Positions 1 to 46,840 of a stretch of DNA of 64,000 nucleotides are shown here, piece by piece. The DNA comes from Chloropicon primus (lineage: Eukaryota). How positions within the stretch are numbered: the stretch's first letter is position 1; each line of letters starts with the position of its first letter. Where the stretch lies: NCBI GenBank assembly GCA_023205875.1, contig CP060773.1, positions 310,001 through 374,000 on the forward strand, written 5' to 3'. The notes below the pieces were generated by a model, which was given only the letters and a program-made list of their open reading frames with translations, did no database searches and was not told where the DNA came from. Both the position numbers and the translations under genes were made by a program.

Positions 1-3000
1 AGTATTACCAGAGCCATCAGCCACGGTAAACTTGTCCGAGTCCATCGTCAAACCACCATTCAACACAGTGGCACCAGTAACAGTAGTGTCACCAGTAACA
101 CCCAAGGTACCAGCGATGGCAGTATTACCAGAGTCATCAGCCACGGTAAACTTGTCCGAGTCCATCGTCAAACCACCATTCAACACAGTGGCGCCAGTAA
201 CAGTAGTGTCACCAGTAACACCCAAGGTACCAGCGATGGCAGTATTACCAGTGTTATCAGCCACGGTAAACTTGTCCGAGTCCATCGTCAAACCACCATT
301 CAACACAGTGGCACCAGTCGTTGTCAACGTACCAGCGATGGCAGTATTACCAGAGCCATCAGCCACGGTAAACTTGTCCGAGTCCATCGTCAAACCACCA
401 TTCAACACAGTGGCGCCAGTAACAGTAGTGTCACCAGTAACACCCAAGGTACCAGCGATGGCAGTATTACCAGAGTCATCAGCCACGGTAAACTTGTCCG
501 AGTCCATCGTCAAACCACCATTCAACACAGTGGCACCAGTCGTTGTCAACGTACCAGCGATGGCAGTATTACCAGAGTCATCAGCCACGGTAAACTTGTC
601 CGAGTCCATCGTCAAACCACCATTCAACACAGTGGCGCCAGTAACAGTAGTGTCACCAGTAACACCCAAGGTACCAGCGATGGCAGTATTACCAGAGTCA
701 TCAGCCACGGTAAACTTGTCCGAGTCCATCGTCAAACCACCATTCAACACAGTGGCGCCAGTAACAGTAGTGTCACCAGTAACACCCAAGGTACCAGCGA
801 TGGCAGTATTACCAGAGTTATCAGCCACGGTAAACTTGTCCGAGTCCATCGTCAAACCACCATTCAACACAGTGGCACCAGTAACAGTAGTGTCACCAGT
901 AACACCCAAGGTACCAGCGATGGCAGTATTACCAGAGTCATCAGCCACGGTAAACTTGTCCGAGTCCATCGTCAAACCACCATTCAACACAGTGGCGCCA
1001 GTAACAGTAGTGTCACCAGTAACACCCAAGGTACCAGCGATGGCAGTATTACCAGAGTTATCAGCCACGGTAAACTTGTCCGAGTCCATCGTCAAACCAC
1101 CATTCAACACAGTGGCACCAGTCGTTGTCAACGTACCAGCGATGGCAGTATTACCAGAGCCATCAGCCACGGTAAACTTGTCCGAGTCCATCGTCAAACC
1201 ACCATTCAACACAGTGGCGCCAGTAACAGTAGTGTCACCAGTAACACCCAAGGTACCAGCGATGGCAGTATTACCAGAGTCATCAGCCACGGTAAACTTG
1301 TCCGAGTCCATCGTCAAACCACCATTCAACACAGTGGCACCAGTCAGTTGTCAACGTACCAGCGATGGCAGTATTACCAGAGTCATCAGCCACGGTAAAC
1401 TTGTCCGAGTCCATCGTCAAACCACCATTCAACACAGTGGCACCAGTAACGTTGTCAACGTACCAGCGATGGCAGTATTACCAGAGCCATCAGCCACGGT
1501 AAACTTGTCCGAGTCCATCGTCAAACCACCATTCAACACAGTGGCGCCAGTAACAGTAGTGTCACCAGTAACACCCAAGGTACCAGCGATGGCAGTATTA
1601 CCAGAGTCATCAGCCACGGTAAACTTGTCCGAGTCCATCGTCAAACCACCATTCAACACAGTGGCGCCAGTAACAGTAGTGTCACCAGTAACACCCAAGG
1701 TACCAGCGATGGCAGTATTACCAGAGTCATCAGCCACGGTAAACTTGTCCGAGTCCATCGTCAAACCACCATTCAACACAGTGGCGCCAGTAACAGTAGT
1801 GTCACCAGTAACACCCAAGGTACCAGCGATGGCAGTATTACCAGAGTCATCAGCCACGGTAAACTTGTCCGAGTCCATCGTCAAACCACCATTCAACACA
1901 GTGGCACCAGTCAGTTGTCAACGTACCAGCGATGGCAGTATTACCAGAGTCATCAGCCACGGTAAACTTGTCCGAGTCCATCGTCAAACCACCATTCAAC
2001 ACAGTGGCACCAGTAACAGTAGTGTCACCAGTAACGGTACCAGCGATGGCAGTATTACCAGAGCCATCAGCCACGGTAAACTTGTCCGAGTCCATCGTCA
2101 AACCACCATTCAACACAGTGGCGCCAGTAACAGTAGTGTCACCAGTAACACCCAAGGTACCAGCGATGGCAGTATTACCAGAGCCATCAGCCACGGTAAA
2201 CTTGTCCGAGTCCATCGTCAAACCACCATTCAACACAGTGGCGCCAGTAACAGTAGTGTCACCAGTAACACCCAAGGTACCAGCGATGGCAGTATTACCA
2301 GAGTCATCAGCCACGGTAAACTTGTCCGAGTCCATCGTCAAACCACCATTCAACACAGTGGCGCCAGTAACAGTAGTGTCACCAGTAACACCCAAGGTAC
2401 CAGCGATGGCAGTATTACCAGAGTTATCAGCCACGGTAAACTTGTCCGAGTCCATCGTCAAACCACCATTCAACACAGTGGCACCAGTCAGTTGTCAACG
2501 TACCAGCGATGGCAGTATTACCAGAGCCATCAGCCACGGTAAACTTGTCCGAGTCCATCGTCAAACCACCATTCAACACAGTGGCGCCAGTAACAGTAGT
2601 GTCACCAGTAACACCCAAGGTACCAGCGATGGCAGTATTACCAGAGCCATCAGCCACGGTAAACTTGTCCGAGTCCATCGTCAAACCACCATTCAACACA
2701 GTGGCGCCAGTAACAGTAGTGTCACCAGTAACACCCAAGGTACCAGCGATGGCAGTATTACCAGAGTCATCAGCCACGGTAAACTTGTCCGAGTCCATCG
2801 TCAAACCACCATTCAACACAGTGGCACCAGTAACAGTAGTGTCACCAGTAACACCCAAGGTACCAGCGATGGCAGTATTACCAGAGCCATCAGCCACGGT
2901 AAACTTGTCCGAGTCCATCGTCAAACCACCATTCAACACAGTGGCGCCAGTAACAGTAGTGTCACCAGTAACACCCAAGGTACCAGCGATGGCAGTATTA

Positions 3001-6000
3001 CCAGAGTCATCAGCCACGGTAAACTTGTCCGAGTCCATCGTCAAACCACCATTCAACACAGTGGCGCCAGTAACAGTAGTGTCACCAGTAACACCCAAGG
3101 TACCAGCGATGGCAGTATTACCAGAGTCATCAGCCACGGTAAACTTGTCCGAGTCCATCGTCAAACCACCATTCAACACAGTGGCGCCAGTAACAGTAGT
3201 GTCACCAGTAACACCCAAGGTACCAGCGATGGCAGTATTACCAGTGTTATCAGCCACGGTAAACTTGTCCGAGTCCATCGTCAAACCACCATTCAACACA
3301 GTGGCACCAGTCGTTGTCAACGTACCAGCGATGGCAGTATTACCAGAGCCATCAGCCACGGTAAACTTGTCCGAGTCCATCGTCAAACCACCATTCAACA
3401 CAGTGGCGCCAGTAACAGTAGTGTCACCAGTAACACCCAAGGTACCAGCGATGGCAGTATTACCAGAGTCATCAGCCACGGTAAACTTGTCCGAGTCCAT
3501 CGTCAAACCACCATTCAACACAGTGGCGCCAGTAACAGTAGTGTCACCAGTAACACCCAAGGTACCAGCGATGGCAGTATTACCAGAGTTATCAGCCACG
3601 GTAAACTTGTCCGAGTCCATCGTCAAACCACCATTCAACACAGTGGCACCAGTCGTTGTCAACGTACCAGCGATGGCAGTATTACCAGAGTCATCAGCCA
3701 CGGTAAACTTGTCCGAGTCCATCGTCAAACCACCATTCAACACAGTGGCGCCAGTAACAGTAGTGTCACCAGTAACACCCAAGGTACCAGCGATGGCAGT
3801 ATTACCAGAGTTATCAGCCACGGTAAACTTGTCCGAGTCCATCGTCAAACCACCATTCAACACAGTGGCACCAGTAACAGTAGTGTCAACGTACCAGCGA
3901 TGGCAGTATTACCAGAGCCATCAGCCACGGTAAACTTGTCCGAGTCCATCGTCAAACCACCATTCAACACAGTGGCGCCAGTAACAGTAGTGTCACCAGT
4001 AACACCCAAGGTACCAGCGATGGCAGTATTACCAGAGCCATCAGCCACGGTAAACTTGTCCGAGTCCATCGTCAAACCACCATTCAACACAGTGGCGCCA
4101 GTAACAGTAGTGTCACCAGTAACACCCAAGGTACCAGCGATGGCAGTATTACCAGAGTCATCAGCCACGGTAAACTTGTCCGAGTCCATCGTCAAACCAC
4201 CATTCAACACAGTGGCGCCAGTAACAGTAGTGTCACCAGTAACACCCAAGGTACCAGCGATGGCAGTATTACCAGAGTCATCAGCCACGGTAAACTTGTC
4301 CGAGTCCATCGTCAAACCACCATTCAACACAGTGGCACCAGTCGTTGTCAACGTACCAGCGATGGCAGTATTACCAGAGCCATCAGCCACGGTAAACTTG
4401 TCCGAGTCCATCGTCAAACCACCATTCAACACAGTGGCGCCAGTAACAGTAGTGTCACCAGTAACACCCAAGGTACCAGCGATGGCAGTATTACCAGAGT
4501 CATCAGCCACGGTAAACTTGTCCGAGTCCATCGTCAAACCACCATTCAACACAGTGGCGCCAGTAACAGTAGTGTCACCAGTAACACCCAAGGTACCAGC
4601 GATGGCAGTATTACCAGAGTCATCAGCCACGGTAAACTTGTCCGAGTCCATCGTCAAACCACCATTCAACACAGTGGCACCAGTAACAGTTGTCAACGTA
4701 CCAGCGATGGCAGTATTACCAGAGTCATCAGCCACGGTAAACTTGTCCGAGTCCATCGTCAAACCACCATTCAACACAGTGGCACCAGTCAGTTGTCAAC
4801 GTACCAGCGATGGCAGTATTACCAGAGCCATCAGCCACGGTAAACTTGTCCGAGTCCATCGTCAAACCACCATTCAACACAGTGGCGCCAGTAACAGTAG
4901 TGTCACCAGTAACACCCAAGGTACCAGCGATGGCAGTATTACCAGAGTCATCAGCCACGGTAAACTTGTCCGAGTCCATCGTCAAACCACCATTCAACAC
5001 AGTGGCGCCAGTAACAGTAGTGTCACCAGTAACACCCAAGGTACCAGCGATGGCAGTATTACCAGAGTCATCAGCCACGGTAAACTTGTCCGAGTCCATC
5101 GTCAAACCACCATTCAACACAGTGGCACCAGTCGTTGTCAACGTACCAGCGATGGCAGTATTACCAGAGCCATCAGCCACGGTAAACTTGTCCGAGTCCA
5201 TCGTCAAACCACCATTCAACACAGTGGCGCCAGTAACAGTAGTGTCACCAGTAACACCCAAGGTACCAGCGATGGCAGTATTACCAGAGTCATCAGCCAC
5301 GGTAAACTTGTCCGAGTCCATCGTCAAACCACCATTCAACACAGTGGCACCAGTAACAGTAGTGTCACCAGTAACACCCAAGGTACCAGCGATGGCAGTA
5401 TTACCAGAGTCATCAGCCACGGTAAACTTGTCCGAGTCCATCGTCAAACCACCATTCAACACAGTGGCACCAGTAACAGTTGTCAACGTACCAGCGATGG
5501 CAGTATTACCAGAGCCATCAGCCACGGTAAACTTGTCCGAGTCCATCGTCAAACCACCATTCAACACAGTGGCGCCAGTAACAGTAGTGTCACCAGTAAC
5601 ACCCAAGGTACCAGCGATGGCAGTATTACCAGAGTCATCAGCCACGGTAAACTTGTCCGAGTCCATCGTCAAACCACCATTCAACACAGTGGCACCAGTA
5701 ACAGTAGTGTCACCAGTAACACCCAAGGTACCAGCGATGGCAGTATTACCAGAGTTATCAGCCACGGTAAACTTGTCCGAGTCCATCGTCAAACCACCAT
5801 TCAACACAGTGGCACCAGTCGTTGTCAACGTACCAGCGATGGCAGTATTACCAGAGCCATCAGCCACGGTAAACTTGTCCGAGTCCATCGTCAAACCACC
5901 ATTCAACACAGTGGCGCCAGTAACAGTAGTGTCACCAGTAACACCCAAGGTACCAGCGATGGCAGTATTACCAGAGTCATCAGCCACGGTAAACTTGTCC

Positions 6001-9000
6001 GAGTCCATCGTCAAACCACCATTCAACACAGTGGCGCCAGTAACAGTAGTGTCACCAGTAACACCCAAGGTACCAGCGATGGCAGTATTACCAGAGTCAT
6101 CAGCCACGGTAAACTTGTCCGAGTCCATCGTCAAACCACCATTCAACACAGTGGCACCAGTAACAGTAGTGTCAACGTACCAGCGATGGCAGTATTACCA
6201 GAGTCATCAGCCACGGTAAACTTGTCCGAGTCCATCGTCAAACCACCATTCAACACAGTGGCACCAGTCAGTTGTCAACGTACCAGCGATGGCAGTATTA
6301 CCAGAGTCATCAGCCACGGTAAACTTGTCCGAGTCCATCGTCAAACCACCATTCAACACAGTGGCACCAGTAACAGTTGTCAACGTACCAGCGATGGCAG
6401 TATTACCAGAGCCATCAGCCACGGTAAACTTGTCCGAGTCCATCGTCAAACCACCATTCAACACAGTGGCGCCAGTAACAGTAGTGTCACCAGTAACACC
6501 CAAGGTACCAGCGATGGCAGTATTACCAGAGCCATCAGCCACGGTAAACTTGTCCGAGTCCATCGTCAAACCACCATTCAACACAGTGGCACCAGTAACA
6601 GTAGTGTCACCAGTAACACCCAAGGTACCAGCGATGGCAGTATTACCAGAGTCATCAGCCACGGTAAACTTGTCCGAGTCCATCGTCAAACCACCATTCA
6701 ACACAGTGGCGCCAGTAACAGTAGTGTCACCAGTAACACCCAAGGTACCAGCGATGGCAGTATTACCAGTGTTATCAGCCACGGTAAACTTGTCCGAGTC
6801 CATCGTCAAACCACCATTCAACACAGTGGCACCAGTCGTTGTCAACGTACCAGCGATGGCAGTATTACCAGAGCCATCAGCCACGGTAAACTTGTCCGAG
6901 TCCATCGTCAAACCACCATTCAACACAGTGGCGCCAGTAACAGTAGTGTCACCAGTAACACCCAAGGTACCAGCGATGGCAGTATTACCAGAGTCATCAG
7001 CCACGGTAAACTTGTCCGAGTCCATCGTCAAACCACCATTCAACACAGTGGCGCCAGTAACAGTAGTGTCACCAGTAACACCCAAGGTACCAGCGATGGC
7101 AGTATTACCAGAGTCATCAGCCACGGTAAACTTGTCCGAGTCCATCGTCAAACCACCATTCAACACAGTGGCGCCAGTAACAGTAGTGTCACCAGTAACA
7201 CCCAAGGTACCAGCGATGGCAGTATTACCAGAGTCATCAGCCACGGTAAACTTGTCCGAGTCCATCGTCAAACCACCATTCAACACAGTGGCACCAGTAA
7301 CAGTTGTCAACGGTACCAGCGATGGCAGTATTACCAGAGTCATCAGCCACGGTAAACTTGTCCGAGTCCATCGTCAAACCACCATTCAACACAGTGGCGC
7401 CAGTAACAGTAGTGTCACCAGTAACACCCAAGGTACCAGCGATGGCAGTATTACCAGAGTCATCAGCCACGGTAAACTTGTCCGAGTCCATCGTCAAACC
7501 ACCATTCAACACAGTGGCGCCAGTAACAGTAGTGTCACCAGTAACACCCAAGGTACCAGCGATGGCAGTATTACCAGAGTTATCAGCCACGGTAAACTTG
7601 TCCGAGTCCATCGTCAAACCACCATTCAACACAGTGGCACCAGTCGTTGTCAACGTACCAGCGATGGCAGTATTACCAGAGTCATCAGCCACGGTAAACT
7701 TGTCCGAGTCCATCGTCAAACCACCATTCAACACAGTGGCGCCAGTAACAGTAGTGTCACCAGTAACACCCAAGGTACCAGCGATGGCAGTATTACCAGA
7801 GTCATCAGCCACGGTAAACTTGTCCGAGTCCATCGTCAAACCACCATTCAACACAGTGGCGCCAGTAACAGTAGTGTCACCAGTAACACCCAAGGTACCA
7901 GCGATGGCAGTATTACCAGAGTCATCAGCCACGGTAAACTTGTCCGAGTCCATCGTCAAACCACCATTCAACACAGTGGCACCAGTCGTTGTCAACGTAC
8001 CAGCGATGGCAGTATTACCAGAGCCATCAGCCACGGTAAACTTGTCCGAGTCCATCGTCAAACCACCATTCAACACAGTGGCGCCAGTAACAGTAGTGTC
8101 ACCAGTAACACCCAAGGTACCAGCGATGGCAGTATTACCAGAGTCATCAGCCACGGTAAACTTGTCCGAGTCCATCGTCAAACCACCATTCAACACAGTG
8201 GCACCAGTAACAGTAGTGTCACCAGTAACACCCAAGGTACCAGCGATGGCAGTATTACCAGAGTCATCAGCCACGGTAAACTTGTCCGAGTCCATCGTCA
8301 AACCACCATTCAACACAGTGGCGCCAGTAACAGTTGTCAACGTACCAGCGATGGCAGTATTACCAGAGCCATCAGCCACGGTAAACTTGTCCGAGTCCAT
8401 CGTCAAACCACCATTCAACACAGTGGCGCCAGTAACAGTAGTGTCACCAGTAACACCCAAGGTACCAGCGATGGCAGTATTACCAGAGTCATCAGCCACG
8501 GTAAACTTGTCCGAGTCCATCGTCAAACCACCATTCAACACAGTGGCGCCAGTAACAGTAGTGTCACCAGTAACACCCAAGGTACCAGCGATGGCAGTAT
8601 TACCAGAGTTATCAGCCACGGTAAACTTGTCCGAGTCCATCGTCAAACCACCATTCAACACAGTGGCACCAGTCGTTGTCAACGTACCAGCGATGGCAGT
8701 ATTACCAGAGTCATCAGCCACGGTAAACTTGTCCGAGTCCATCGTCAAACCACCATTCAACACAGTGGCGCCAGTAACAGTAGTGTCACCAGTAACACCC
8801 AAGGTACCAGCGATGGCAGTATTACCAGAGTCATCAGCCACGGTAAACTTGTCCGAGTCCATCGTCAAACCACCATTCAACACAGTGGCGCCAGTAACAG
8901 TAGTGTCACCAGTAACACCCAAGGTACCAGCGATGGCAGTATTACCAGAGTCATCAGCCACGGTAAACTTGTCCGAGTCCATCGTCAAACCACCATTCAA

Positions 9001-12000
9001 CACAGTGGCACCAGTCGTTGTCAACGTACCAGCGATGGCAGTATTACCAGAGCCATCAGCCACGGTAAACTTGTCCGAGTCCATCGTCAAACCACCATTC
9101 AACACAGTGGCACCAGTCATTGTCAACGTACCAGCGATGGCAGTATTACCAGAGTCATCAGCCACGGTAAACTTGTCCGAGTCCATCGTCAAACCACCAT
9201 TCAACACAGTGGCACCAGTAACAGTTGTCAACGGTACCAGCGATGGCAGTATTACCAGAGTCATCAGCCACGGTAAACTTGTCCGAGTCCATCGTCAAAC
9301 CACCATTCAACACAGTGGCGCCAGTAACAGTAGTGTCACCAGTAACACCCAAGGTACCAGCGATGGCAGTATTACCAGAGCCATCAGCCACGGTAAACTT
9401 GTCCGAGTCCATCGTCAAACCACCATTCAACACAGTGGCACCAGTAACAGTAGTGTCACCAGTAACACCCAAGGTACCAGCGATGGCAGTATTACCAGAG
9501 TCATCAGCCACGGTAAACTTGTCCGAGTCCATCGTCAAACCACCATTCAACACAGTGGCGCCAGTAACAGTAGTGTCACCAGTAACACCCAAGGTACCAG
9601 CGATGGCAGTATTACCAGTGTTATCAGCCACGGTAAACTTGTCCGAGTCCATCGTCAAACCACCATTCAACACAGTGGCACCAGTCGTTGTCAACGTACC
9701 AGCGATGGCAGTATTACCAGAGCCATCAGCCACGGTAAACTTGTCCGAGTCCATCGTCAAACCACCATTCAACACAGTGGCGCCAGTAACAGTAGTGTCA
9801 CCAGTAACACCCAAGGTACCAGCGATGGCAGTATTACCAGAGTCATCAGCCACGGTAAACTTGTCCGAGTCCATCGTCAAACCACCATTCAACACAGTGG
9901 CGCCAGTAACAGTAGTGTCACCAGTAACACCCAAGGTACCAGCGATGGCAGTATTACCAGAGTCATCAGCCACGGTAAACTTGTCCGAGTCCATCGTCAA
10001 ACCACCATTCAACACAGTGGCACCAGTAACAGTAGTGTCACCAGTAACACCCAAGGTACCAGCGATGGCAGTATTACCAGAGCCATCAGCCACGGTAAAC
10101 TTGTCCGAGTCCATCGTCAAACCACCATTCAACACAGTGGCACCAGTCGTTGTCAACGTACCAGCGATGGCAGTATTACCAGAGTCATCAGCCACGGTAA
10201 ACTTGTCCGAGTCCATCGTCAAACCACCATTCAACACAGTGGCGCCAGTAACAGTAGTGTCACCAGTAACACCCAAGGTACCAGCGATGGCAGTATTACC
10301 AGAGTCATCAGCCACGGTAAACTTGTCCGAGTCCATCGTCAAACCACCATTCAACACAGTGGCGCCAGTAACAGTAGTGTCACCAGTAACACCCAAGGTA
10401 CCAGCGATGGCAGTATTACCAGAGTCATCAGCCACGGTAAACTTGTCCGAGTCCATCGTCAAACCACCATTCAACACAGTGGCACCAGTAACAGTAGTGT
10501 CACCACGGTACCAGCGATGGCAGTATTACCAGAGCCATCAGCCACGGTAAACTTGTCCGAGTCCATCGTCAAACCACCATTCAACACAGTGGCACCAGTC
10601 GTTGTCAACGTACCAGCGATGGCAGTATTACCAGAGTTATCAGCCACGGTAAACTTGTCCGAGTCCATCGTCAAACCACCATTCAACACAGTGGCGCCAG
10701 TAACAGTAGTGTCACCAGTAACACCCAAGGTACCAGCGATGGCAGTATTACCAGAGTCATCAGCCACGGTAAACTTGTCCGAGTCCATCGTCAAACCACC
10801 ATTCAACACAGTGGCGCCAGTAACAGTAGTGTCACCAGTAACACCCAAGGTACCAGCGATGGCAGTATTACCAGAGTTATCAGCCACGGTAAACTTGTCC
10901 GAGTCCATCGTCAAACCACCATTCAACACAGTGGCACCAGTCAGTTGTCAACGTACCAGCGATGGCAGTATTACCAGAGTCATCAGCCACGGTAAACTTG
11001 TCCGAGTCCATCGTCAAACCACCATTCAACACAGTGGCGCCAGTAACAGTAGTGTCACCAGTAACACCCAAGGTACCAGCGATGGCAGTATTACCAGTGT
11101 TATCAGCCACGGTAAACTTGTCCGAGTCCATCGTCAAACCACCATTCAACACAGTGGCACCAGTCGTTGTCAACGTACCAGCGATGGCAGTATTACCAGA
11201 GCCATCAGCCACGGTAAACTTGTCCGAGTCCATCGTCAAACCACCATTCAACACAGTGGCGCCAGTAACAGTAGTGTCACCAGTAACACCCAAGGTACCA
11301 GCGATGGCAGTATTACCAGAGTCATCAGCCACGGTAAACTTGTCCGAGTCCATCGTCAAACCACCATTCAACACAGTGGCACCAGTAACAGTAGTGTCAC
11401 CAGTAACACCCAAGGTACCAGCGATGGCAGTATTACCAGAGTCATCAGCCACGGTAAACTTGTCCGAGTCCATCGTCAAACCACCATTCAACACAGTGGC
11501 ACCAGTAACAGTAGTGTCACCAGTAACACCCAAGGTACCAGCGATGGCAGTATTACCAGAGCCATCAGCCACGGTAAACTTGTCCGAGTCCATCGTCAAA
11601 CCACCATTCAACACAGTGGCACCAGTAACAGTAGTGTCACCAGTAACACCCAAGGTACCAGCGATGGCAGTATTACCAGAGCCATCAGCCACGGTAAACT
11701 TGTCCGAGTCCATCGTCAAACCACCATTCAACACAGTGGCGCCAGTAACAGTAGTGTCACCAGTAACACCCAAGGTACCAGCGATGGCAGTATTACCAGT
11801 GTTATCAGCCACGGTAAACTTGTCCGAGTCCATCGTCAAACCACCATTCAACACAGTGGCACCAGTCGTTGTCAACGTACCAGCGATGGCAGTATTACCA
11901 GAGCCATCAGCCACGGTAAACTTGTCCGAGTCCATCGTCAAACCACCATTCAACACAGTGGCGCCAGTAACAGTAGTGTCACCAGTAACACCCAAGTACC

Positions 12001-18000: not shown

Positions 18001-21000
18001 TCCGAGTCCATCGTCAAACCACCATTCAACACAGTGGCGCCAGTAACAGTAGTGTCACCAGTAACACCCAAGGTACCAGCGATGGCAGTATTACCAGTGT
18101 TATCAGCCACGGTAAACTTGTCCGAGTCCATCGTCAAACCACCATTCAACACAGTGGCACCAGTCGTTGTCAACGTACCAGCGATGGCAGTATTACCAGA
18201 GCCATCAGCCACGGTAAACTTGTCCGAGTCCATCGTCAAACCACCATTCAACACAGTGGCGCCAGTAACAGTAGTGTCACCAGTAACACCCAAGGTACCA
18301 GCGATGGCAGTATTACCAGTGTTATCAGCCACGGTAAACTTGTCCGAGTCCATCGTCAAACCACCATTCAACACAGTGGCACCAGTAACAGTAGTGTCAC
18401 CAGTAACACCCAAGGTACCAGCGATGGCAGTATTACCAGAGCCATCAGCCACGGTAAACTTGTCCGAGTCCATCGTCAAACCACCATTCAACACAGTGGC
18501 ACCAGTAACAGTAGTGTCACCAGTAACACCCAAGGTACCAGCGATGGCAGTATTACCAGAGTCATCAGCCACGGTAAACTTGTCCGAGTCCATCGTCAAA
18601 CCACCATTCAACACAGTGGCGCCAGTAACAGTAGTGTCACCAGTAACACCCAAGGTACCAGCGATGGCAGTATTACCAGAGTCATCAGCCACGGTAAACT
18701 TGTCCGAGTCCATCGTCAAACCACCATTCAACACAGTGGCACCAGTAACAGTAGTGTCACCAGTAACACCCAAGGTACCAGCGATGGCAGTATTACCAGA
18801 GTCATCAGCCACGGTAAACTTGTCCGAGTCCATCGTCAAACCACCATTCAACACAGTGGCGCCAGTAACAGTAGTGTCACCAGTAACACCCAAGGTACCA
18901 GCGATGGCAGTATTACCAGAGTCATCAGCCACGGTAAACTTGTCCGAGTCCATCGTCAAACCACCATTCAACACAGTGGCACCAGTAACAGTAGTGTCAC
19001 CAGTAACACCCAAGGTACCAGCGATGGCAGTATTACCAGAGTCATCAGCCACGGTAAACTTGTCCGAGTCCATCGTCAAACCACCATTCAACACAGTGGC
19101 GCCAGTAACAGTAGTGTCACCAGTAACACCCAAGGTACCAGCGATGGCAGTATTACCAGTGTTATCAGCCACGGTAAACTTGTCCGAGTCCATCGTCAAA
19201 CCACCATTCAACACAGTGGCGCCAGTAACAGTAGTGTCACCAGTAACACCCAAGGTACCAGCGATGGCAGTATTACCAGAGTCATCAGCCACGGTAAACT
19301 TGTCCGAGTCCATCGTCAAACCACCATTCAACACAGTGGCGCCAGTAACAGTAGTGTCACCAGTAACACCCAAGGTACCAGCGATGGCAGTATTACCAGA
19401 GTCATCAGCCACGGTAAACTTGTCCGAGTCCATCGTCAAACCACCATTCAACACAGTGGCGCCAGTAACAGTAGTGTCACCAGTAACACCCAAGGTACCA
19501 GCGATGGCAGTATTACCAGTGTTATCAGCCACGGTAAACTTGTCCGAGTCCATCGTCAAACCACCATTCAACACAGTGGCACCAGTCGTTGTCAACGTAC
19601 CAGCGATGGCAGTATTACCAGAGCCATCAGCCACGGTAAACTTGTCCGAGTCCATCGTCAAACCACCATTCAACACAGTGGCGCCAGTAACAGTAGTGTC
19701 ACCAGTAACACCCAAGGTACCAGCGATGGCAGTATTACCAGAGCCATCAGCCACGGTAAACTTGTCCGAGTCCATCGTCAAACCACCATTCAACACAGTG
19801 GCGCCAGTAACAGTAGTGTCACCAGTAACACCCAAGGTACCAGCGATGGCAGTATTACCAGAGCCATCAGCCACGGTAAACTTGTCCGAGTCCATCGTCA
19901 AACCACCATTCAACACAGTGGCGCTAGTAACACCCAAGGTACCAGCGATGGCAGTATTACCAGAGCCATCAGCCACGGTAAACTTGTCCGAGTCCATCGT
20001 CAAACCACCATTCAACACAGTGGCACCAGTAACAGTAGTGTCACCAGTAACACCCAAGGTACCAGCGATGGCAGTATTACCAGAGTTATCAGCCACGGTA
20101 AACTTGTCCGAGTCCATCGTCAAACCACCATTCAACACAGTGGCACCAGTAACAGTGATGCACCAGTAACACCCAAGGTACCAGCGATGGCAGTATTACC
20201 AGAGCCATCAGCCACGGTAAACTTGTCCGAGTCCATCGTCAAACCACCATTCAACACAGTGGCGCCAGTAACAGTAGTGTCACCAGTAACACCCAAGGTA
20301 CCAGCGATGGCAGTATTACCAGAGGCATCAGCCACGGTAAACTTGTCCGAGTCCATCGTCAAACCACCATTCAACACAGTGGCGCCAGTAACAGTAGTGT
20401 CACCAGTAACACCCAAGGTACCAGCGATGGCAGTATTACCAGAGTCATCAGCCACGGTAAACTTGTCCGAGTCCATCGTCAAACCACCATTCAACACAGT
20501 GGCGCCAGTAACAGTAGTGTCACCAGTAACACCCAAGGTACCAGCGATGGCAGTATTACCAGAGTCATCAGCCACGGTAAACTTGTCCGAGTCCATCGTC
20601 AAACCACCATTCAACACAGTGGCGCCAGTCGTTGTCAACGTACCAGCGATGGCAGTATTACCAGAGTCATCAGCCACGGTAAACTTGTCCGAGTCCATCG
20701 TCAAACCACCATTCAACACAGTGGCGCCAGTAACAGTAGTGTCACCAGTAACACCCAAGGTACCAGCGATGTCAGTATTACCAGAGCCATCAGCCACGGT
20801 AAACTTGTCCGAGTCCATCGTCAAACCACCATTCAACACAGTGGCGCCAGTAACAGTAGTGTCACCAGTAACACCCAAGGTACCAGCGATGGCAGTATTA
20901 CCAGAGCCATCAGCCACGGTAAACTTGTCCGAGTCCATCGTCAAACCACCATTCAACACAGTGGCGCCAGTAACAGTAGTGTCACCAGTAACACCCAAGG

Positions 21001-24000
21001 TACCAGCGATGGCAGTATTACCAGAGTCATCAGCCACGGTAAACTTGTCCGAGTCCATTGTCAAACCACCATTCAACACAGTGGCGCCAGTCGTTGTCAA
21101 CGTACCAGCGATGGCAGTATTACCAGAGTCATCAGCCACGGTAAACTTGTCCGAGTCCATCGTCAAACCACCATTCAACACAGTGGCGCCAGTAACAGTA
21201 GTGTCACCAGTAACACCCAAGGTACCAGCGATGGCAGTATTACCAGAGCCATCAGCCACGGTAAACTTGTCCGAGTCCATCGTCAAACCACCATTCAACA
21301 CAGTGGCGCCAGTAACAGTAGTGTCACCAGTAACACCCAAGGTACCAGCGATGGCAGTATTACCAGAGTCATCAGCCACGGTAAACTTGTCCGAGTCCAT
21401 CGTCAAACCACCATTCAACACAGTGGCGCCAGTAACAGTAGTGTCACCAGTAACACCCAAGGTACCAGCGATGGCAGTATTACCAGAGTCATCAGCCACG
21501 GTAAACTTGTCCGAGTCCATCGTCAAACCACCATTCAACACAGTGGCGCCAGTAACAGTAGTGTCACCAGTAACACCCAAGGTACCAGCGATGGCAGTAT
21601 TACCAGTGTTATCAGCCACGGTAAACTTGTCCGAGTCCATCGTCAAACCACCATTCAACACAGTGGCGCCAGTCGTTGTCAACGTACCAGCGATGGCAGT
21701 ATTACCAGAGTCATCAGCCACGGTAAACTTGTCCGAGTCCATCGTCAAACCACCATTCAACACAGTGGCGCCAGTAACACCCAAGGTACCAGCGATGGCA
21801 GTATTACCAGAGCCATCAGCCACGGTAAACTTGTCCGAGTCCATCGTCAAACCACCATTCAACACAGTGGCACCAGTAACAGTGATAGCACCAGTAACAC
21901 CCAAGGTACCAGCGATGGCAGTATTACCAGAGCCATCAGCCACGGTAAACTTGTCCGAGTCCATCGTCAAACCACCATTCAACACAGTGGCGCCAGTAAC
22001 AGTAGTGTCACCAGTAACACCCAAGGTACCAGCGATGGCAGTATTACCAGAGCCATCAGCCACGGTAAACTTGTCCGAGTCCATCGTCAAACCACCATTC
22101 AACACAGTGGCGCCAGTAACAGTAGTGTCACCAGTAACACCCAAGGTACCAGCGATGTCAGTATTACCAGAGTCATCAGCCACGGTAAACTTGTCCGAGT
22201 CCATCGTCAAACCACCATTCAACACAGTGGCGCCAGTAACAGTAGTGTCACCAGTAACACCCAAGGTACCAGCGATGGCAGTATTACCAGAGCCATCAGC
22301 CACGGTAAACTTGTCCGAGTCCATCGTCAAACCACCATTCAACACAGTGGCGCCAGTAACACCCAAGGTACCAGCGATGGCAGTATTACCAGAGCCATCA
22401 GCCACGGTAAACTTGTCCGAGTCCATCGTCAAACCACCATTCAACACAGTGGCACCAGTAACAGTAGTGTCACCAGTAACACCCAAGGTACCAGCGATGG
22501 CAGTATTACCAGTGTTATCAGCCACGGTAAACTTGTCCGAGTCCATCGTCAAACCACCATTCAACACAGTGGCGCCAGTAACAGTAGTGTCACCAGTAAC
22601 ACCCAAGGTACCAGCGATGGCAGTATTACCAGAGTCATCAGCCACGGTAAACTTGTCCGAGTCCATCGTCAAACCACCATTCAACACAGTGGCGCCAGTA
22701 ACAGTAGTGTCACCAGTAACACCCAAGGTACCAGTGATGGCAGTATTACCAGAGTCATCAGCCACGGTAAACTTGTCCGAGTCCATTGTCAAACCACCAT
22801 TCAACACAGTGGCGCCAGTCGTTGTCAACGTACCAGCGATGGCAGTATTACCAGAGTCATCAGCCACGGTAAACTTGTCCGAGTCCATCGTCAAACCACC
22901 ATTCAACACAGTGGCGCCAGTAACAGTAGTGTCACCAGTAACACCCAAGGTACCAGCGATGTCAGTATTACCAGAGCCATCAGCCACGGTAAACTTGTCC
23001 GAGTCCATCGTCAAACCACCATTCAACACAGTGGCGCCAGTAACAGTAGTGTCACCAGTAACACCCAAGGTACCAGCGATGGCAGTATTACCAGAGTCAT
23101 CAGCCACGGTAAACTTGTCCGAGTCCATCGTCAAACCACCATTCAACACAGTGGCACCAGTAACAGTAGTGTCACCAGTAACACCCAAGGTACCAGCGAT
23201 GGCAGTATTACCAGAGTCATCAGCCACGGTAAACTTGTCCGAGTCCATTGTCAAACCACCATTCAACACAGTGGCGCCAGTCGTTGTCAACGTACCAGCG
23301 ATGGCAGTATTACCAGAGTCATCAGCCACGGTAAACTTGTCCGAGTCCATCGTCAAACCACCATTCAACACAGTGGCGCCAGTAACAGTAGTGTCACCAG
23401 TAACACCCAAGGTACCAGCGATGTCAGTATTACCAGAGCCATCAGCCACGGTAAACTTGTCCGAGTCCATCGTCAAACCACCATTCAACACAGTGGCGCC
23501 AGTAACAGTAGTGTCACCAGTAACACCCAAGGTACCAGCGATGGCAGTATTACCAGAGTCATCAGCCACGGTAAACTTGTCCGAGTCCATCGTCAAACCA
23601 CCATTCAACACAGTGGCGCCAGTAACAGTAGTGTCACCAGTAACACCCAAGGTACCAGCGATGGCAGTATTACCAGAGTCATCAGCCACGGTAAACTTGT
23701 CCGAGTCCATCGTCAAACCACCATTCAACACAGTGGCGCCAGTAACAGTAGTGTCACCAGTAACACCCAAGGTACCAGCGATGGCAGTATTACCAGTGTT
23801 ATCAGCCACGGTAAACTTGTCCGAGTCCATCGTCAAACCACCATTCAACACAGTGGCGCCAGTCGTTGTCAACGTACCAGCGATGGCAGTATTACCAGAG
23901 TCATCAGCCACGGTAAACTTGTCCGAGTCCATCGTCAAACCACCATTCAACACAGTGGCGCCAGTAACACCCAAGGTACCAGCGATGGCAGTATTACCAG

Positions 24001-27000
24001 AGCCATCAGCCACGGTAAACTTGTCCGAGTCCATCGTCAAACCACCATTCAACACAGTGGCACCAGTAACAGTGATAGCACCAGTAACACCCAAGGTACC
24101 AGCGATGGCAGTATTACCAGAGCCATCAGCCACGGTAAACTTGTCCGAGTCCATCGTCAAACCACCATTCAACACAGTGGCGCCAGTAACAGTAGTGTCA
24201 CCAGTAACACCCAAGGTACCAGCGATGGCAGTATTACCAGAGCCATCAGCCACGGTAAACTTGTCCGAGTCCATCGTCAAACCACCATTCAACACAGTGG
24301 CGCCAGTAACAGTAGTGTCACCAGTAACACCCAAGGTACCAGCGATGTCAGTATTACCAGAGTCATCAGCCACGGTAAACTTGTCCGAGTCCATCGTCAA
24401 ACCACCATTCAACACAGTGGCGCCAGTAACAGTAGTGTCACCAGTAACACCCAAGGTACCAGCGATGGCAGTATTACCAGAGCCATCAGCCACGGTAAAC
24501 TTGTCCGAGTCCATCGTCAAACCACCATTCAACACAGTGGCGCCAGTAACACCCAAGGTACCAGCGATGGCAGTATTACCAGAGCCATCAGCCACGGTAA
24601 ACTTGTCCGAGTCCATCGTCAAACCACCATTCAACACAGTGGCACCAGTAACAGTAGTGTCACCAGTAACACCCAAGGTACCAGCGATGGCAGTATTACC
24701 AGTGTTATCAGCCACGGTAAACTTGTCCGAGTCCATCGTCAAACCACCATTCAACACAGTGGCGCCAGTAACAGTAGTGTCACCAGTAACACCCAAGGTA
24801 CCAGCGATGGCAGTATTACCAGAGTCATCAGCCACGGTAAACTTGTCCGAGTCCATTGTCAAACCACCATTCAACACAGTGGCGCCAGTAACAGTAGTGT
24901 CACCAGTAACACCCAAGGTACCAGTGATAGCAGTATTACCAGAGTCATCAGCCACGGTAAACTTGTCCGAGTCCATTGTCAAACCACCATTCAACACAGT
25001 GGCGCCAGTCGTTGTCAACGTACCAGCGATGGCAGTATTACCAGAGTCATCAGCCACGGTAAACTTGTCCGAGTCCATCGTCAAACCACCATTCAACACA
25101 GTGGCGCCAGTAACAGTAGTGTCACCAGTAACACCCAAGGTACCAGCGATGTCAGTATTACCAGAGCCATCAGCCACGGTAAACTTGTCCGAGTCCATCG
25201 TCAAACCACCATTCAACACAGTGGCGCCAGTAACAGTAGTGTCACCAGTAACACCCAAGGTACCAGCGATGTCAGTATTACCAGAGTCATCAGCCACGGT
25301 AAACTTGTCCGAGTCCATCGTCAAACCACCATTCAACACAGTGGCACCAGTAACAGTAGTGTCACCAGTAACACCCAAGGTACCAGCGATGGCAGTATTA
25401 CCAGAGTCATCAGCCACGGTAAACTTGTCCGAGTCCATTGTCAAACCACCATTCAACACAGTGGCGCCAGTCGTTGTCAACGTACCAGCGATGGCAGTAT
25501 TACCAGAGTCATCAGCCACGGTAAACTTGTCCGAGTCCATCGTCAAACCACCATTCAACACAGTGGCGCCAGTAACAGTAGTGTCACCAGTAACACCCAA
25601 GGTACCAGCGATGTCAGTATTACCAGAGCCATCAGCCACGGTAAACTTGTCCGAGTCCATCGTCAAACCACCATTCAACACAGTGGCGCCAGTAACAGTA
25701 GTGTCACCAGTAACACCCAAGGTACCAGCGATGGCAGTATTACCAGAGTCATCAGCCACGGTAAACTTGTCCGAGTCCATCGTCAAACCACCATTCAACA
25801 CAGTGGCGCCAGTAACAGTAGTGTCACCAGTAACACCCAAGGTACCAGCGATGGCAGTATTACCAGAGTCATCAGCCACGGTAAACTTGTCCGAGTCCAT
25901 CGTCAAACCACCATTCAACACAGTGGCGCCAGTAACAGTAGTGTCACCAGTAACACCCAAGGTACCAGCGATGGCAGTATTACCAGTGTTATCAGCCACG
26001 GTAAACTTGTCCGAGTCCATCGTCAAACCACCATTCAACACAGTGGCGCCAGTCGTTGTCAACGTACCAGCGATGGCAGTATTACCAGAGTCATCAGCCA
26101 CGGTAAACTTGTCCGAGTCCATCGTCAAACCACCATTCAACACAGTGGCGCCAGTAACACCCAAGGTACCAGCGATGGCAGTATTACCAGAGCCATCAGC
26201 CACGGTAAACTTGTCCGAGTCCATCGTCAAACCACCATTCAACACAGTGGCACCAGTAACAGTGATAGCACCAGTAACACCCAAGGTACCAGCGATGGCA
26301 GTATTACCAGAGTCATCAGCCACGGTAAACTTGTCCGAGTCCATCGTCAAACCACCATTCAACACAGTGGCGCCAGTAACAGTAGTGTCACCAGTAACAC
26401 CCAAGGTACCAGCGATGGCAGTATTACCAGAGCCATCAGCCACGGTAAACTTGTCCGAGTCCATCGTCAAACCACCATTCAACACAGTGGCGCCAGTAAC
26501 AGTAGTGTCACCAGTAACACCCAAGGTACCAGCGATGTCAGTATTACCAGAGTCATCAGCCACGGTAAACTTGTCCGAGTCCATCGTCAAACCACCATTC
26601 AACACAGTGGCGCCAGTAACAGTAGTGTCACCAGTAACACCCAAGGTACCAGCGATGTCAGTATTACCAGAGCCATCAGCCACGGTAAACTTGTCCGAGT
26701 CCATCGTCAAACCACCATTCAACACAGTGGCGCTAGTAACACCCAAGGTACCAGCGATGGCAGTATTACCAGAGCCATCAGCCACGGTAAACTTGTCCGA
26801 GTCCATCGTCAAACCACCATTCAACACAGTGGCGCCAGTAACACCCAAGGTACCAGCGATGGCAGTATTACCAGAGCCATCAGCCACGGTAAACTTGTCC
26901 GAGTCCATCGTCAAACCACCATTCAACACAGTGGCGCCAGTAACAGTAGTGTCACCAGTAACACCCAAGGTACCAGCGATGGCAGTATTACCAGTGTTAT

Positions 27001-30000
27001 CAGCCACGGTAAACTTGTCCGAGTCCATCGTCAAACCACCATTCAACACAGTGGCACCAGTAACAGTGATAGCACCAGTAACACCCAAGGTACCAGCGAT
27101 GGCAGTATTACCAGAGCCATCAGCCACGGTAAACTTGTCCGAGTCCATCGTCAAACCACCATTCAACACAGTGGCGCCAGTAACAGTGGTGTCACCAGTA
27201 ACACCCAAGGTACCAGCGATGGCAGTATTACCAGAGCCATCAGCCACGGTAAACTTGTCCGAGTCCATCGTCAAACCACCTTTCAACACAGTGGCGCCAG
27301 TAACAGTAGTGTCACCAGTAACACCCAAGGTACCAGCGATGGCAGTATTACCAGAGTCATCAGCCACGGTAAACTTGTCCGAGTCCATTGTCAAACCACC
27401 ATTCAACACAGTGGCGCCAGTAACAGTAGTGTCACCAGTAACACCCAAGGTACCAGCGATGGCAGTATTACCAGAGTCATCAGCCACGGTAAACTTGTCC
27501 GAGTCCATCGTCAAACCACCATTCAACACAGTGGCACCAGTCGTTGTCAACGTACCAGCGATGTCAGTATTACCAGAGCCATCAGCCACGGTAAACTTGT
27601 CCGAGTCCATCGTCAAACCACCATTCAACACAGTGGCGCCAGTAACAGTAGTGTCACCAGTAACACCCAAGGTACCAGCGATGGCAGTATTACCAGAGGC
27701 ATCAGCCACGGTAAACTTGTCCGAGTCCATCGTCAAACCACCATTCAACACAGTGGCGCCAGTCGTTGTCAACGTACCAGCGATGGCAGTATTACCAGAG
27801 TCATCAGCCACGGTAAACTTGTCCGAGTCCATTGTCAAACCACCATTCAACACAGTGGCGCCAGTAACAGTAGTGTCACCAGTAACACCCAAGGTACCAG
27901 CGATGGCAGTATTACCAGAGTCATCAGCCACGGTAAACTTGTCCGAGTCCATTGTCAAACCACCATTCAACACAGTGGCGCCAGTAACAGTAGTGTCACC
28001 AGTAACACCCAAGGTACCAGCGATGGCAGTATTACCAGAGTCATCAGCCACGGTAAACTTGTCCGAGTCCATCGTCAAACCACCATTCAACACAGTGGCA
28101 CCAGTCGTTGTCAACGTACCAGCGATGTCAGTATTACCAGAGCCATCAGCCACGGTAAACTTGTCCGAGTCCATCGTCAAACCACCATTCAACACAGTGG
28201 CGCCAGTAACAGTAGTGTCACCAGTAACACCCAAGGTACCAGCGATGGCAGTATTACCAGAGTCATCAGCCACGGTAAACTTGTCCGAGTCCATCGTCAA
28301 ACCACCATTCAACACAGTGGCGCCAGTCGTTGTCAACGTACCAGCGATGGCAGTATTACCAGAGTCATCAGCCACGGTAAACTTGTCCGAGTCCATTGTC
28401 AAACCACCATTCAACACAGTGGCGCCAGTAACAGTAGTGTCACCAGTAACACCCAAGGTACCAGCGATGGCAGTATTACCAGAGTCATCAGCCACGGTAA
28501 ACTTGTCCGAGTCCATTGTCAAACCACCATTCAACACAGTGGCGCCAGTAACAGTAGTGTCACCAGTAACACCCAAGGTACCAGCGATGGCAGTATTACC
28601 AGAGTCATCAGCCACGGTAAACTTGTCCGAGTCCATCGTCAAACCACCATTCAACACAGTGGCACCAGTCGTTGTCAACGTACCAGCGATGTCAGTATTA
28701 CCAGAGCCATCAGCCACGGTAAACTTGTCCGAGTCCATCGTCAAACCACCATTCAACACAGTGGCGCCAGTAACAGTAGTGTCACCAGTAACACCCAAGG
28801 TACCAGCGATGGCAGTATTACCAGAGTCATCAGCCACGGTAAACTTGTCCGAGTCCATCGTCAAACCACCATTCAACACAGTGGCGCCAGTAACAGTAGT
28901 GTCACCAGTAACACCCAAGGTACCAGCGATGGCAGTATTACCAGAGTCATCAGCCACGGTAAACTTGTCCGAGTCCATCGTCAAACCACCATTCAACACA
29001 GTGGCGCCAGTCGTTGTCAACGTACCAGCGATGGCAGTATTACCAGAGTCATCAGCCACGGTAAACTTGTCCGAGTCCATTGTCAAACCACCATTCAACA
29101 CAGTGGCGCCAGTAACAGTAGTGTCACCAGTAACACCCAAGGTACCAGCGATGGCAGTATTACCAGAGTCATCAGCCACGGTAAACTTGTCCGAGTCCAT
29201 CGTCAAACCACCATTCAACACAGTGGCGCCAGTCGTTGTCAACGTACCAGCGATGGCAGTATTACCAGAGTCATCAGCCACGGTAAACTTGTCCGAGTCC
29301 ATCGTCAAACCACCATTCAACACAGTGGCACCAGTAACAGTAGTGTCACCAGTAACACCCAAGGTACCAGCGATGGCAGTATTACCAGTGCCATCAGCCA
29401 CGGTAAACGTGTTTGTATCCATTGTTAAACCACCATTCAACACAGTGGCACCAGTCGTTGTCAACGTACCAGCGATGTCAGTATTACCAGAGCCATCAGC
29501 CACGGTAAACTTGTCCGAGTCCATCGTCAAACCACCATTCAACACAGTGGCGCCAGTAACAGTAGTGTCACCAGTAACACCCAAGGTACCAGCGATGGCA
29601 GTATTACCAGAGTCATCAGCCACGGTAAACTTGTCCGAGTCCATCGTCAAACCACCATTCAACACAGTGGCGCCAGTAACAGTAGTGTCACCAGTAACAC
29701 CCAAGGTACCAGCGATGGCAGTATTACCAGAGCCATCAGCCACGGTAAACTTGTCCGAGTCCATCGTCAAACCACCATTCAACACAGTGGCGCCAGTCGT
29801 TGTCAACGTACCAGCGATGGCAGTATTACCAGAGTCATCAGCCACGGTAAACTTGTCCGAGTCCATTGTCAAACCACCATTCAACACAGTGGCGCCAGTA
29901 ACAGTAGTGTCACCAGTAACACCCAAGGTACCAGCGATGGCAGTATTACCAGAGTCATCAGCCACGGTAAACTTGTCCGAGTCCATCGTCAAACCACCAT

Positions 30001-30225
30001 TCAACACAGTGGCGCCAGTCGTTGTCAACGTACCAGCGATGGCAGTATTACCAGAGTCATCAGCCACGGTAAACTTGTCCGAGTCCATCGTCAAACCACC
30101 ATTCAACACAGTGGCACCAGTAACAGTAGTGTCACCAGTAACACCCAAGGTACCAGCGATGGCAGTATTACCAGTGCCATCAGCCACGGTAAACGTGTTT
30201 GTATCCATTGTTAAACCACCATTGA
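1..30225 (-). repeat. Coding tandem array of about 260 units of 120 bp (GNTAIAGTLGVTGDTTVTGATVLNGGLTMDSDKFTVADDS) interspersed with 102-bp variants lacking one 6-aa module
   Basis: 120-bp periodicity is directly visible. The 20132..30364 (3410 aa) and 14037..20138 (2033 aa) ORFs read through it without stops. The unit count is estimated from array length. Confidence 0.97.
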
Positions 30226-45200: not shown

Positions 45201-46840
45201 TTGAAATCAACAAACTCTGATGATATGTGCCCTTCATCCCCTAAATCTATTGGCCCAAATCCCGGTTCAATTGAACCGCTGCTAACTTTGCCCAAACCAG
45301 TGATGTCACTTTGGTTTAATTCCAAATGCCCCGTTTCCCCATTCAATACAAGTGGATATGATACATCAACTACTATTGTTCCGTTGTTGTCTGGGACTAC
45401 AATAGTGTTGTTACTGACTGAAGGTCCTTCGACTTTCAGAGCAGTAACGAAGCCGTCACTTTCGGACAGACCGTCAAACAAGAGAGGAAATTCACCACCT
45501 ATTGAGCCTTGGAAAGTGATGACGTTGTTCGTCGTGACGTTCTGTACCTCCCTGACCACAACAGATCCCCCAAGCTCCACTGTGCCATTCTTGTCCACGG
45601 AGATTGGTTCTGGTCTTGTATCATTTTCTCTCTTCTTGCCGAGTTTCAAGCTTCCGGCTAGTTCAACTTGACCGTTCTCACTGGATTCTAGCTTCACATT
45701 TCCCGTCTGCGACGCGATGGTTATGTTTGCTGTAGAATTCAAAGAGAGTCCATCAGCATTGATTTCTAGCATGCCTCCGCCAGCTTCGTTGCCTGACGAT
45801 ATTTTTGTGGCATTTGCAGTGAACTCCATAACAGGCTTATCGTCCTTCTGCATCACAACCTGCTCTCCGCCTCCAAAAGCATATACTCCAAAAGCAGCAT
45901 CACTCTCCTCTGTTGCTACCACCAAACCAGCAGGCTGGCCTTGTCCCGATCTGATTTCTAGCGTCGCAGAGCCCTCCCCGTCTCCAATGACAACATCAGG
46001 GTTTACCTCCGCTTCACCATCTTGCAGCAGCCTTCTCCTCTTTGGGTCTGCTATTTTGGGCGCCAACGTTTTGCTCCCAAATCGAACTGGGCCGTCGACG
46101 TCCAAGAGCACGTCAGTAGGTGAGGAGTCATCCACCGGTCCCCTCTTTACGAGCAAGCTGCTTTGAATCATTTCCAAGCTTCCCGCGGATGTTGTCCGAA
46201 GGAGGGCACGGGTATGGAAGTTGTCCTCCATGTATGTGCCAAAAGACAAAATCTCATCCGCCTTGTCTGTGCTTTCTGTCGTGTGGCTTGCGATTCTTAT
46301 GTGCGCCTGTGGCGTCACCCCTTGCTCCAGCAGGGAGTAGGGGTTAGGACCGTGAGCTTGGCCGTAAACTTCCAAGGCCTCGTTCACGCTCACAAAATCT
46401 CCTTGCGCCTCCACTTTGAAGTAGACTGAGACGACCACAGCAGAGGCCCAAATGAGGAGAATGGCGTGCATGAAAAGAAGCAAGAGCATGCTTGACAACT
46501 GTGCACACGCAATAAGAAGCTGCCGGCTGGCCTTCTTGATCTGGTTGGGATTCCTCCTCCCGGCATCTGCTTTCGACGTCCCAACAGGTTTTCTCCCCTT
46601 CCCCGGGTCTGGTGCAATCTTCGCCGACTTTGCCTTCTTCTTCTTCTTCACTGTCCTCAAGGGATTCGCGGAGGGCTTTGGCTCGGCGAACTTCACCTTG
46701 GACGTGATTCTTTGTGTGGTTTCAAGCGCAGAGACGGGCGCCGCTTGAGTTAGGACACAGGTTCGACGAGCGCGGTAGAGGGGAAGACGCAGAGGCACTT
46801 ACTTGTTTATCTTCTCGGGCTGAATCCTGGAGCTCAACAT
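1..46840 (-). CDS. Giant repetitive membrane-anchored/extracellular fibre-like protein (>15,500 aa, 3' end outside window); exon 1 46840-46803, intron 46802-46710, exon 2 46709 to <1 with apparent assembly frameshifts
   Basis: ATG at 46840 reads MLSSRIQPEKIN-AA, then a GTAAGT donor, a CTAAC branch-like motif and an AAG acceptor at 46710. The phase-2 join restores K-ITSKVKF into the 42515..46798 ORF. Successive minus-strand ORFs carry the same repeats in overlapping frames, linked by 1-2 nt indels, down to position 1. No terminal stop is seen. Confidence 0.8.
30450..42740 (-). repeat. Coding tandem array of about 15 near-identical 774-bp units (258 aa, Gly/Ser-rich, 16 internal [SG]G-x-h-x-h-x-x-G coils) plus one 447-bp truncated unit
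   Basis: Identical ORFs recur every 772-774 bp (33153, 33927, 34701...). The spacing between 41662 and 42109 is 447 bp. Confidence 0.97.
46710..46802 (-). other. Spliceosomal intron (93 nt) of the giant gene
   Basis: GTAAGT...CCTAAC...ACACAAAG on the minus strand; removing it keeps the frame from the ATG at 46840. Confidence 0.75.

Follow-up and report, generated by a model that had tools for sequence, protein, structure and literature searches.

Giant fibrils built from triple β-helices are already known from eukaryotes. The TLP-12 preprint (bioRxiv 10.1101/2025.09.30.679562), in the passages used here, names as a candidate the Amoebophrya protein A0A8J1ZHD7 of 19,853 amino acids, which has a C-terminal ICA domain, and gives a rise of 9.6 Å per 12 residues, from which we derive a length estimate below. 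Here, we analyse a stretch of 64,000 nucleotides from the marine green picoalga Chloropicon primus (assembly GCA_023205875.1, contig CP060773.1, positions 310,001–374,000; 'the window' in the following), in which positions 1–30,225 are occupied by an array of 120 and 102 bp coding repeats. This array is probably the shaft-coding part of one giant C. primus-type gene, the product of which is predicted to be a trimeric β filament located at or outside the cell surface.

The window gene resembles the TLP-12 class but fails its repeat signature. As in the available TLP-12 passages, we find a giant eukaryotic repeat protein of comparable size that is rich in Ser and Thr and has Gly-initiated strands about six residues apart; the giant length holds if the breaks in the reading frame are errors. 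TLP-12, in contrast, has a pure 12-residue GSxxS repeat and candidates in alveolates, whereas the window contains a 40-mer or 34-mer with a ten-residue insert and Thr-rich hexads, and no GSxxS dodecapeptide. It is also set apart by the near-identity of its unit to phage units, by its occurrence in a green alga, by its second array and by what is likely a membrane anchor; the TLP-12 passages mention no anchor. An ICA (S74) chaperone domain such as that at the C-terminus of the TLP-12 candidates is not visible in the window, the start of which cuts the gene before its C-terminus.

The gene likewise contains phage-fibre parts, yet it is no phage tail fibre. Fibre proteins of uncultured phages (L070, L079, L003, P0006, P0047 and P0050; PHROG 697, 'structural protein') share the unit, in the closest case at 36 of its 40 residues, as well as a series of motif spacings of 10 + 6n, and L070 has a second module in common with the algal N-terminal part. 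Among stored proteins they carry at most 20 interspersed and diverged copies and start with virion-attachment domains, while in the window a hydrophobic helix precedes 261 or more copies that are almost identical. MYRF is a eukaryotic membrane protein with a triple β-helix of the phage tailspike type and a chaperone, but it is a transcription factor with a short stalk, unlike the giant array described here. The spikes P2 gpV, the Mu spike, T4 gp5 and VgrG are the source of most of the weak structural matches of our monomer model (Z ≤ 4.5) and show no sequence similarity; T4 gp5 uses an eight-residue VxGxxxxx motif (PMC4576200, in the part considered).

The repeat unit and its relatives

The array, on the minus strand, splits at 262 anchors into 261 complete units, of which 183 are 120 bp long, 56 are 102 bp long and 22 have other lengths. 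Because the window start cuts the array this number is a minimum, in agreement with the count of about 260 in a first-pass annotation made from the sequence, and at least 10,000 residues are encoded within the window. Each unit consists of five hexads of the form G-x-h-x-h-x followed by a ten-residue FTV-loop-GNT segment. The commonest translation is present in 97 of the 244 in-frame units and is the one from which the annotation had parsed the unit; 59 others differ from it solely by the replacement of Asp by Gly at position 39. There are no stops in the 244 in-frame units. Each of the 56 short units is shorter by exactly 18 bp (TTT/TMT type in 48, GVT type in eight), which confirms the loss of one six-residue module described for these variants earlier. 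The 22 odd-length units comprise 17 that shift the frame and five that remain in frame with 35 or 38 residues. In sequence, the hexads read as short strands that begin with Gly and have hydrophobic residues at alternating positions, and they are gained or lost as whole units, as in triple β-helix fibres. The autocorrelation of Gly is 0.44 at lag 6 and 0.26 at lag 12. As the ten-residue segment comes after five hexads, the register resets in every unit, and the periodicity is modular rather than strict as had been claimed.

The opposite strand of the array is also open, in two frames; the minus frame is singled out by its homology and by its continuity with the upstream gene. Among 3,346 residues examined, 753 are Thr (23%) and 168 are Ser, and there are no N-glycosylation sequons, a composition that makes O-glycosylation possible. 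Pfam matches on the array (Myosin_VII_N and others) were rejected as sums of weak repeat matches in which no single stretch passes.

A 163-residue piece of the array matches 962 cluster representatives at E ≤ 0.001, and the array matches phrog_697 with an E value of 1.8e-15. Among 379 sequences, with rotations allowed, the best unit match is to L070 (36 of 40 residues, up to 90% identity), followed by several sequences including L003 that match at 35 of 40 residues; identities of matched units at the DNA level are 89/120 and 94/120. Both L070 and L079 have a match to a tail-fibre PHROG; they are located downstream of tail genes, in L079 together with major head genes. L003 is flanked by a virion structural gene and by neck genes, and it carries both Mtd_N and S74. 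Of the best 150 representatives, 142 were scanned for domains, eight long ones being left out. Peptidase_S74 was found in 15 and Mtd_N in six of these, at two different E limits; among 61 long homologues Mtd_N occurs in 21, S74 in five and PF03906 in two. Pattern matches encode relatives in 169 of 186 cases in viral contigs versus 14 of 314 in prokaryotic genomes. A tblastn search of annotated phage records, with the low-complexity filter on, gave no match.

The spacings between motif copies (173 of 204 homologues) fall at 22, 28, 34, 40, 46 and 52, with 335 of 503 fitting 10 + 6n. The whole family therefore has the six-residue module of the first-pass annotation in common, and of 1,172 homologue hexads 90% begin with Gly and 93% have a hydrophobic residue at position 5. 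No stored homologue has more than 20 motif copies, and none comes near the 261 of the window. Six homologues (P0154–P0157, P0159 and P0161) form a family of 3,600–5,200 amino acids with 16–20 motif copies and no precomputed Pfam domain, and P0009 is a 544-residue fragment with the repeat, then S74 and a Pro/Ala-rich end that looks eukaryotic.

Three of 80 metagenome loci (L082, L083 and L086) are of eukaryotic type and encode a protein ending with the same repeat; two of these are near-identical in protein. After the repeat come Ser-rich repeats with a period of 12 and then a small cap that contains Cys (L082:530–1377 and L083:900–1766 cover the ends). All three loci adjoin CPSF100, and L082 also a ubiquitin-conjugating enzyme. 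For the cap, neither Pfam nor NCBIfam gives a match and the PDB gives no clear one by sequence, and viral contigs contain no relative of that of L083. The units of these relatives are identical to that of the window at 26–27 of 34 residues, which is below the phage units and would fit separate or repeated acquisition.

The gene around the array

The array is likely to be the distal end of one minus-strand gene of more than 47 kb. Read as one frame, and presuming that the breaks are errors, this gene has at least 15,500 (about 15,600) codons. From the N-terminus, a likely membrane anchor and a unique domain are followed by Gly/Ser repeats, a 774 bp array, a linker and the 120 bp array:

46,803–46,840, minus strand: putative first exon with ATG, then a GTAAGT donor (from the sequence only)
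46,493–46,709, minus strand: Lys/Arg-rich segment ahead of the helix, likely cytoplasmic by the positive-inside rule
46,421–46,492, minus strand: single hydrophobic helix (best 19-residue mean hydropathy 2.6)
44,291–46,420, minus strand: unique N-terminal ectodomain with no family match in domain scans
45,056–45,193, minus strand: second phage-fibre module of the FEG...TTL...PT..RTI.LPD..GT type (residues 536–581 of a 1,427-residue frame)
42,771–44,290, minus strand: non-identical Gly/Ser-rich sub-repeats with 35–41% identity to the 774 bp unit
30,461–42,770, minus strand: array of 774 bp units (258 amino acids, Gly/Ser-rich) with 16 anchors
30,226–30,460, minus strand: unique linker joining the two arrays, with two homopolymer deletions in the window and intact in short-read contigs (runs X1 and X2)
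1–30,225, minus strand: array of 120/102 bp units (40/34 amino acids), predicted fibre shaft (anchors, homology and monomer model)

The first-pass annotation was correct in calling the array phage-fibre-like, but overlooked the larger algal gene to which it would belong, together with the likely anchor and the second array. The 1,427-residue N-terminal frame contains 11 N-glycosylation sequons and has no match in Pfam, PHROG or NCBIfam, and hence no Mtd_N or T7-type virion-attachment domain. Its residues 420–660 match 49 of 2,285 sequences, compared with none for the reversed query. The best of these (iE 3.7e-7) is again L070, which thus gives the best match to both the 40-residue unit and the second N-terminal module. 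A weaker copy of this module is present near 45,365–45,484.

The 774 bp unit contains about 17 sub-repeats of the type G-x-h-x-h-x-[TS]-G. Its copies are identical except for homopolymer deletions, and one interval of 1,220 bp includes a 447 bp partial duplication. No relative of this unit was found in viral contigs. It resembles Atlas clusters at a score of 0.98, one of which is named after S74-domain proteins, while another is mostly chlorophyte and a third oomycete; as few members have records and recognition is low, this is a lead. Four frames of the window were looked up as exact sequences, and none is on record.

A putative intron of 93 nt (46,802–46,710) preserves the frame between the first exon and the Lys/Arg-rich segment. 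The hydrophobic helix is likely to serve as a type II signal anchor; should translation begin instead at the Met immediately ahead of the helix, it would be a cleavable signal peptide. The ectodomain contains a KRRRLLQ motif (about 46,030–46,045, minus strand), which we take to be a possible processing site as in algal secreted proteins. A start at the Met ahead of the helix, cleavage near the RRLL motif or use of a possible cleavage site after the helix would release the protein as a free glycofibril that contributes to mucilage or wall material instead of standing as a hair. The first exon is putative, and TLP-12 occurred free in water according to the passages used here (bioRxiv 10.1101/2025.09.30.679562). 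About 100 open Lys/Arg-rich codons nevertheless precede the helix, as expected for a cytoplasmic tail, and we consider a shed fibril quite improbable.

The neighbouring genes are eukaryotic (Hikeshi, bestrophin, EBP, pseudouridine synthase, FKBP, IRE1-like and STI1), and two of the three that were looked up cluster with the C. primus proteins QDZ26095.1 and QDZ26101.1. The array therefore lies among green-algal neighbours and not among the structural genes of a phage genome. An endogenous viral gene that resides in the chromosome and has no role for the host would account for the near-identity to viral units, and algal viruses do have tail-fibre and S74 genes (PMC12906663, in the part considered). 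Such a relic is very improbable given that there are no viral genes among the upstream ORFs that were scanned, that the anchor is of eukaryotic type and accompanied by the putative intron, and that the Gly-rich unit resembles chlorophyte and oomycete clusters and has no relative in viral contigs.

Two further neighbours deserve mention. The IRE1-like kinase/ribonuclease (58,517–62,509, minus strand) carries C-terminal CCCH zinc fingers in two stretches, an unusual addition. A hypothetical protein of 628 residues (48,917–50,800, minus strand), for which no Pfam family scores above its cut-off, has a C-terminal Cys and a later His that are maybe a papain-like pair.

Frame breaks, copy number and the reference assembly

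Four short-read runs were compared, of which X1 and X2 alone have a contig (one each) that spans the linker. Over 30,053–30,760 the short-read contigs have one additional base at three places, two in the linker (two of four runs, X1 and X2) and one in the 774 bp unit (all four runs), and when these differences are applied the segment contains no stop. A short-read contig across a junction of 774 bp units is in frame, and the other breaks in this array are one or two bases missing in runs of C or G. Since the bases are restored by short reads, most breaks look like assembly errors. In the 120 bp array, all 22 odd units deviate solely in the segment that distinguishes long from short units. Frame-shifting units are concentrated away from the linker: 16 of 129 units below 15 kb versus 1 of 132 above, the side nearer the linker (Fisher p = 8e-5). 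Polishing with mixed units would be expected to produce both features.

The frameshifts, 17 in the 120 bp array and more in the 774 bp array as assembled, could also mean that a phage-derived fragment was expanded as DNA into a decaying or silent coding satellite that gives no full-length protein now. The low GC3 of the array would agree with this, as would the published reference, in which hypothetical genes are annotated at the locus, A3770_20p86100 being at least one of them. Nevertheless, the 244 in-frame units contain no stops; the unique part is open over 1,427 codons and an unbroken frame of 10 kb lies beside the linker. The breaks fall at homopolymers or at the single site that is polymorphic, short reads mend those that were compared, and similar proteins end cleanly at other eukaryotic loci. 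We therefore regard a satellite as unlikely.

The high copy number of the 120 bp unit has support that is independent of the window assembly. The summed contig depth in X1 is about 1.2 million over this unit compared with 259 on the linker, and dividing the ratio by 31 overlapping words still leaves more than 100 copies, a depth-based figure and not a copy number. For the 774 bp unit the contigs are 3.0 times as deep as the linker in X1 and 6.3 times in X2, compared with 16 assembled anchors; depths are not copy numbers, and the number of 774 bp units may vary between isolates or be mis-assembled. In run X4 a contig leaves the repeat before window position 30,143 with a diverged unit and at least 255 further letters, in which the array possibly ends and the C-terminal part begins.

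For the published C. primus reference, insertions of the repeat of 3,789 and 102 bp are listed on chromosome 20 at 299,221 and 300,453, with read depths of the insertion calls of 27 and 77 compared with 8–25 at nine other listed sites (PMC6731263, in the part considered). Among the rows listed in one supplementary gene table of that paper, the locus tags were unmatched. By anchoring on the neighbours, both arrays fit into about 13 kb or less of the reference, where they overlap A3770_20p86100, and are thus collapsed or much shorter there. Records of the neighbour genes place them on contigs of 417,210 and 368,919 bases. If the whole difference of 48 kb were due to the arrays, the gene would be near 60 kb with about 20,000 codons. 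A giant gene would then be concealed by assembly, as the repeat shows in the reference merely as long-read insertion calls at a short locus. A term search of two Chloropicon genome papers, in the parts covered, found no mention of tail or fibre proteins and a literature search for 'Chloropicon' and 'tail fiber' returned no papers. We found no description in the literature of the locus or of such a green-algal protein, the supplementary candidate lists of TLP-12 being outside the scope of the search.

Predicted fold and possible role

The AlphaFold2 monomer of the repeat, computed with a 70-row alignment, has a pLDDT of 85.9 and a pTM of 0.60. A VIA search retrieved eight of 48,161 chains with Z scores of 2.4–4.5, none reaching 5 and all below the level of trust. 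They comprise the P2 and Mu central spikes, an OBP/T4 gp5 β-helix chimera, a VgrG entry, two baseplate chains, a PBCV-1 chain and a hyaluronidase. Four of the eight are titled spikes or β-helix fragments and two are baseplate chains; presumably most are triple β-helices, as judged partly from the titles. Sequence searches of solved structures gave nothing significant. The likeness to phage fibres in the first-pass annotation holds in sequence, the support for its triple β-helix being indirect and the structural matches weak; of the structural check that it proposed, the monomer came out confident, while Foldseek gave no PDB match.

A confident monomer would also suit the same giant protein if each chain alone formed a β-solenoid, similar to bactofilin or haemagglutinin, without intertwining into a trimer. 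Some Atlas clusters contain Bactofilin (16–28% of members) or Fil_haemagg (32%), and one representative lies above the Bactofilin cut-off. These rows, however, score 0.86–0.90 with low recognition, and no solenoid is among the eight VIA chains. Homologues bear S74, the chaperone of trimeric fibres, and deletions of single hexads suit a three-sided prism, so that we regard a solenoid as rather improbable.

Several observations weigh against the trimeric filament as well. Besides the low VIA scores, Foldseek with the monomer model gave no matches in the PDB and none at E ≤ 0.001 among the viral models of BFVD (best E 0.13), and the model of the 774 bp unit is unusable (pLDDT 39). S74 is missing from 127 of the 142 representatives scanned and from the ends of the three eukaryotic relatives, and searches among proteins of 2,499–5,000 residues with the N-terminal part and with the Gly-rich part gave no homologue, which is weak evidence. 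In the array, ten of the 22 odd segments are not simple prefix–suffix hybrids of common units, and its 17 frameshifts stand as assembled; the short-read runs are possibly from another isolate, as there is one substitution in the linker. The GC3 of the array is 0.45 compared with 0.74–0.80 in the neighbours, which fits a foreign origin but also low expression. Finally, Chloropicon walls are described as smooth and fibrils are reported solely from Chloroparvula (PMC5656628, in the part considered), which speaks against a dense coat.

With these reservations, the trimeric filament can be described as follows. The product would enter the secretory pathway through the single N-terminal helix as a type II membrane protein, and would wind with two more copies into a triple-stranded β filament at least 0.7 µm long. 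Every hexad would contribute a single short strand to one side of a triangular prism, and the ten-residue segment would form a hairpin. Loss of 18 bp would shorten the rod by about 0.5 nm and leave it intact. For the part in the window, 1,493 strands of 0.48 nm give about 720 nm, or 650–800 nm with the two TLP-12 figures, in accordance with the rod of several hundred nanometres estimated earlier. The modules are likely to derive from phage tail-fibre genes, after which they would have been expanded and homogenised by unequal crossing-over. The filament would most likely serve as an adhesive or spacer hair that carries a putative C-terminal head, which would be encoded beyond the window, far past the wall, and many of its threonines are possibly O-glycosylated.

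More tentatively, a phage tail-fibre gene may have been domesticated into a membrane-anchored trimeric filament that comprises about 20,000 residues, measures about one micrometre, is tuned in length by steps of 18 and 120 bp and belongs to a hidden family of phage-derived hairs on the surface of marine picoalgae. Chloropicon cells measure 2–4 µm (PMC5656628, in the part considered). It is conceivable, with similar reserve, that such a filament spans a quarter to half of the cell diameter, and that the family is hidden as assemblies collapse it and annotations split it.

If true, an abundant open-ocean alga with a wall described as smooth bears micrometre-scale hairs made from phage parts, and these could affect its contacts with bacteria, viruses and grazers. 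The TLP-12 class of environmental fibrils would have an equivalent in an organism that can be grown in culture and has a sequenced genome, and the 36 of 40 residues in common would represent a clear transfer of a module from phage to eukaryote. The regular 40-residue unit with its natural six-residue deletions is also a simple test object for the folding of triple β-helices.

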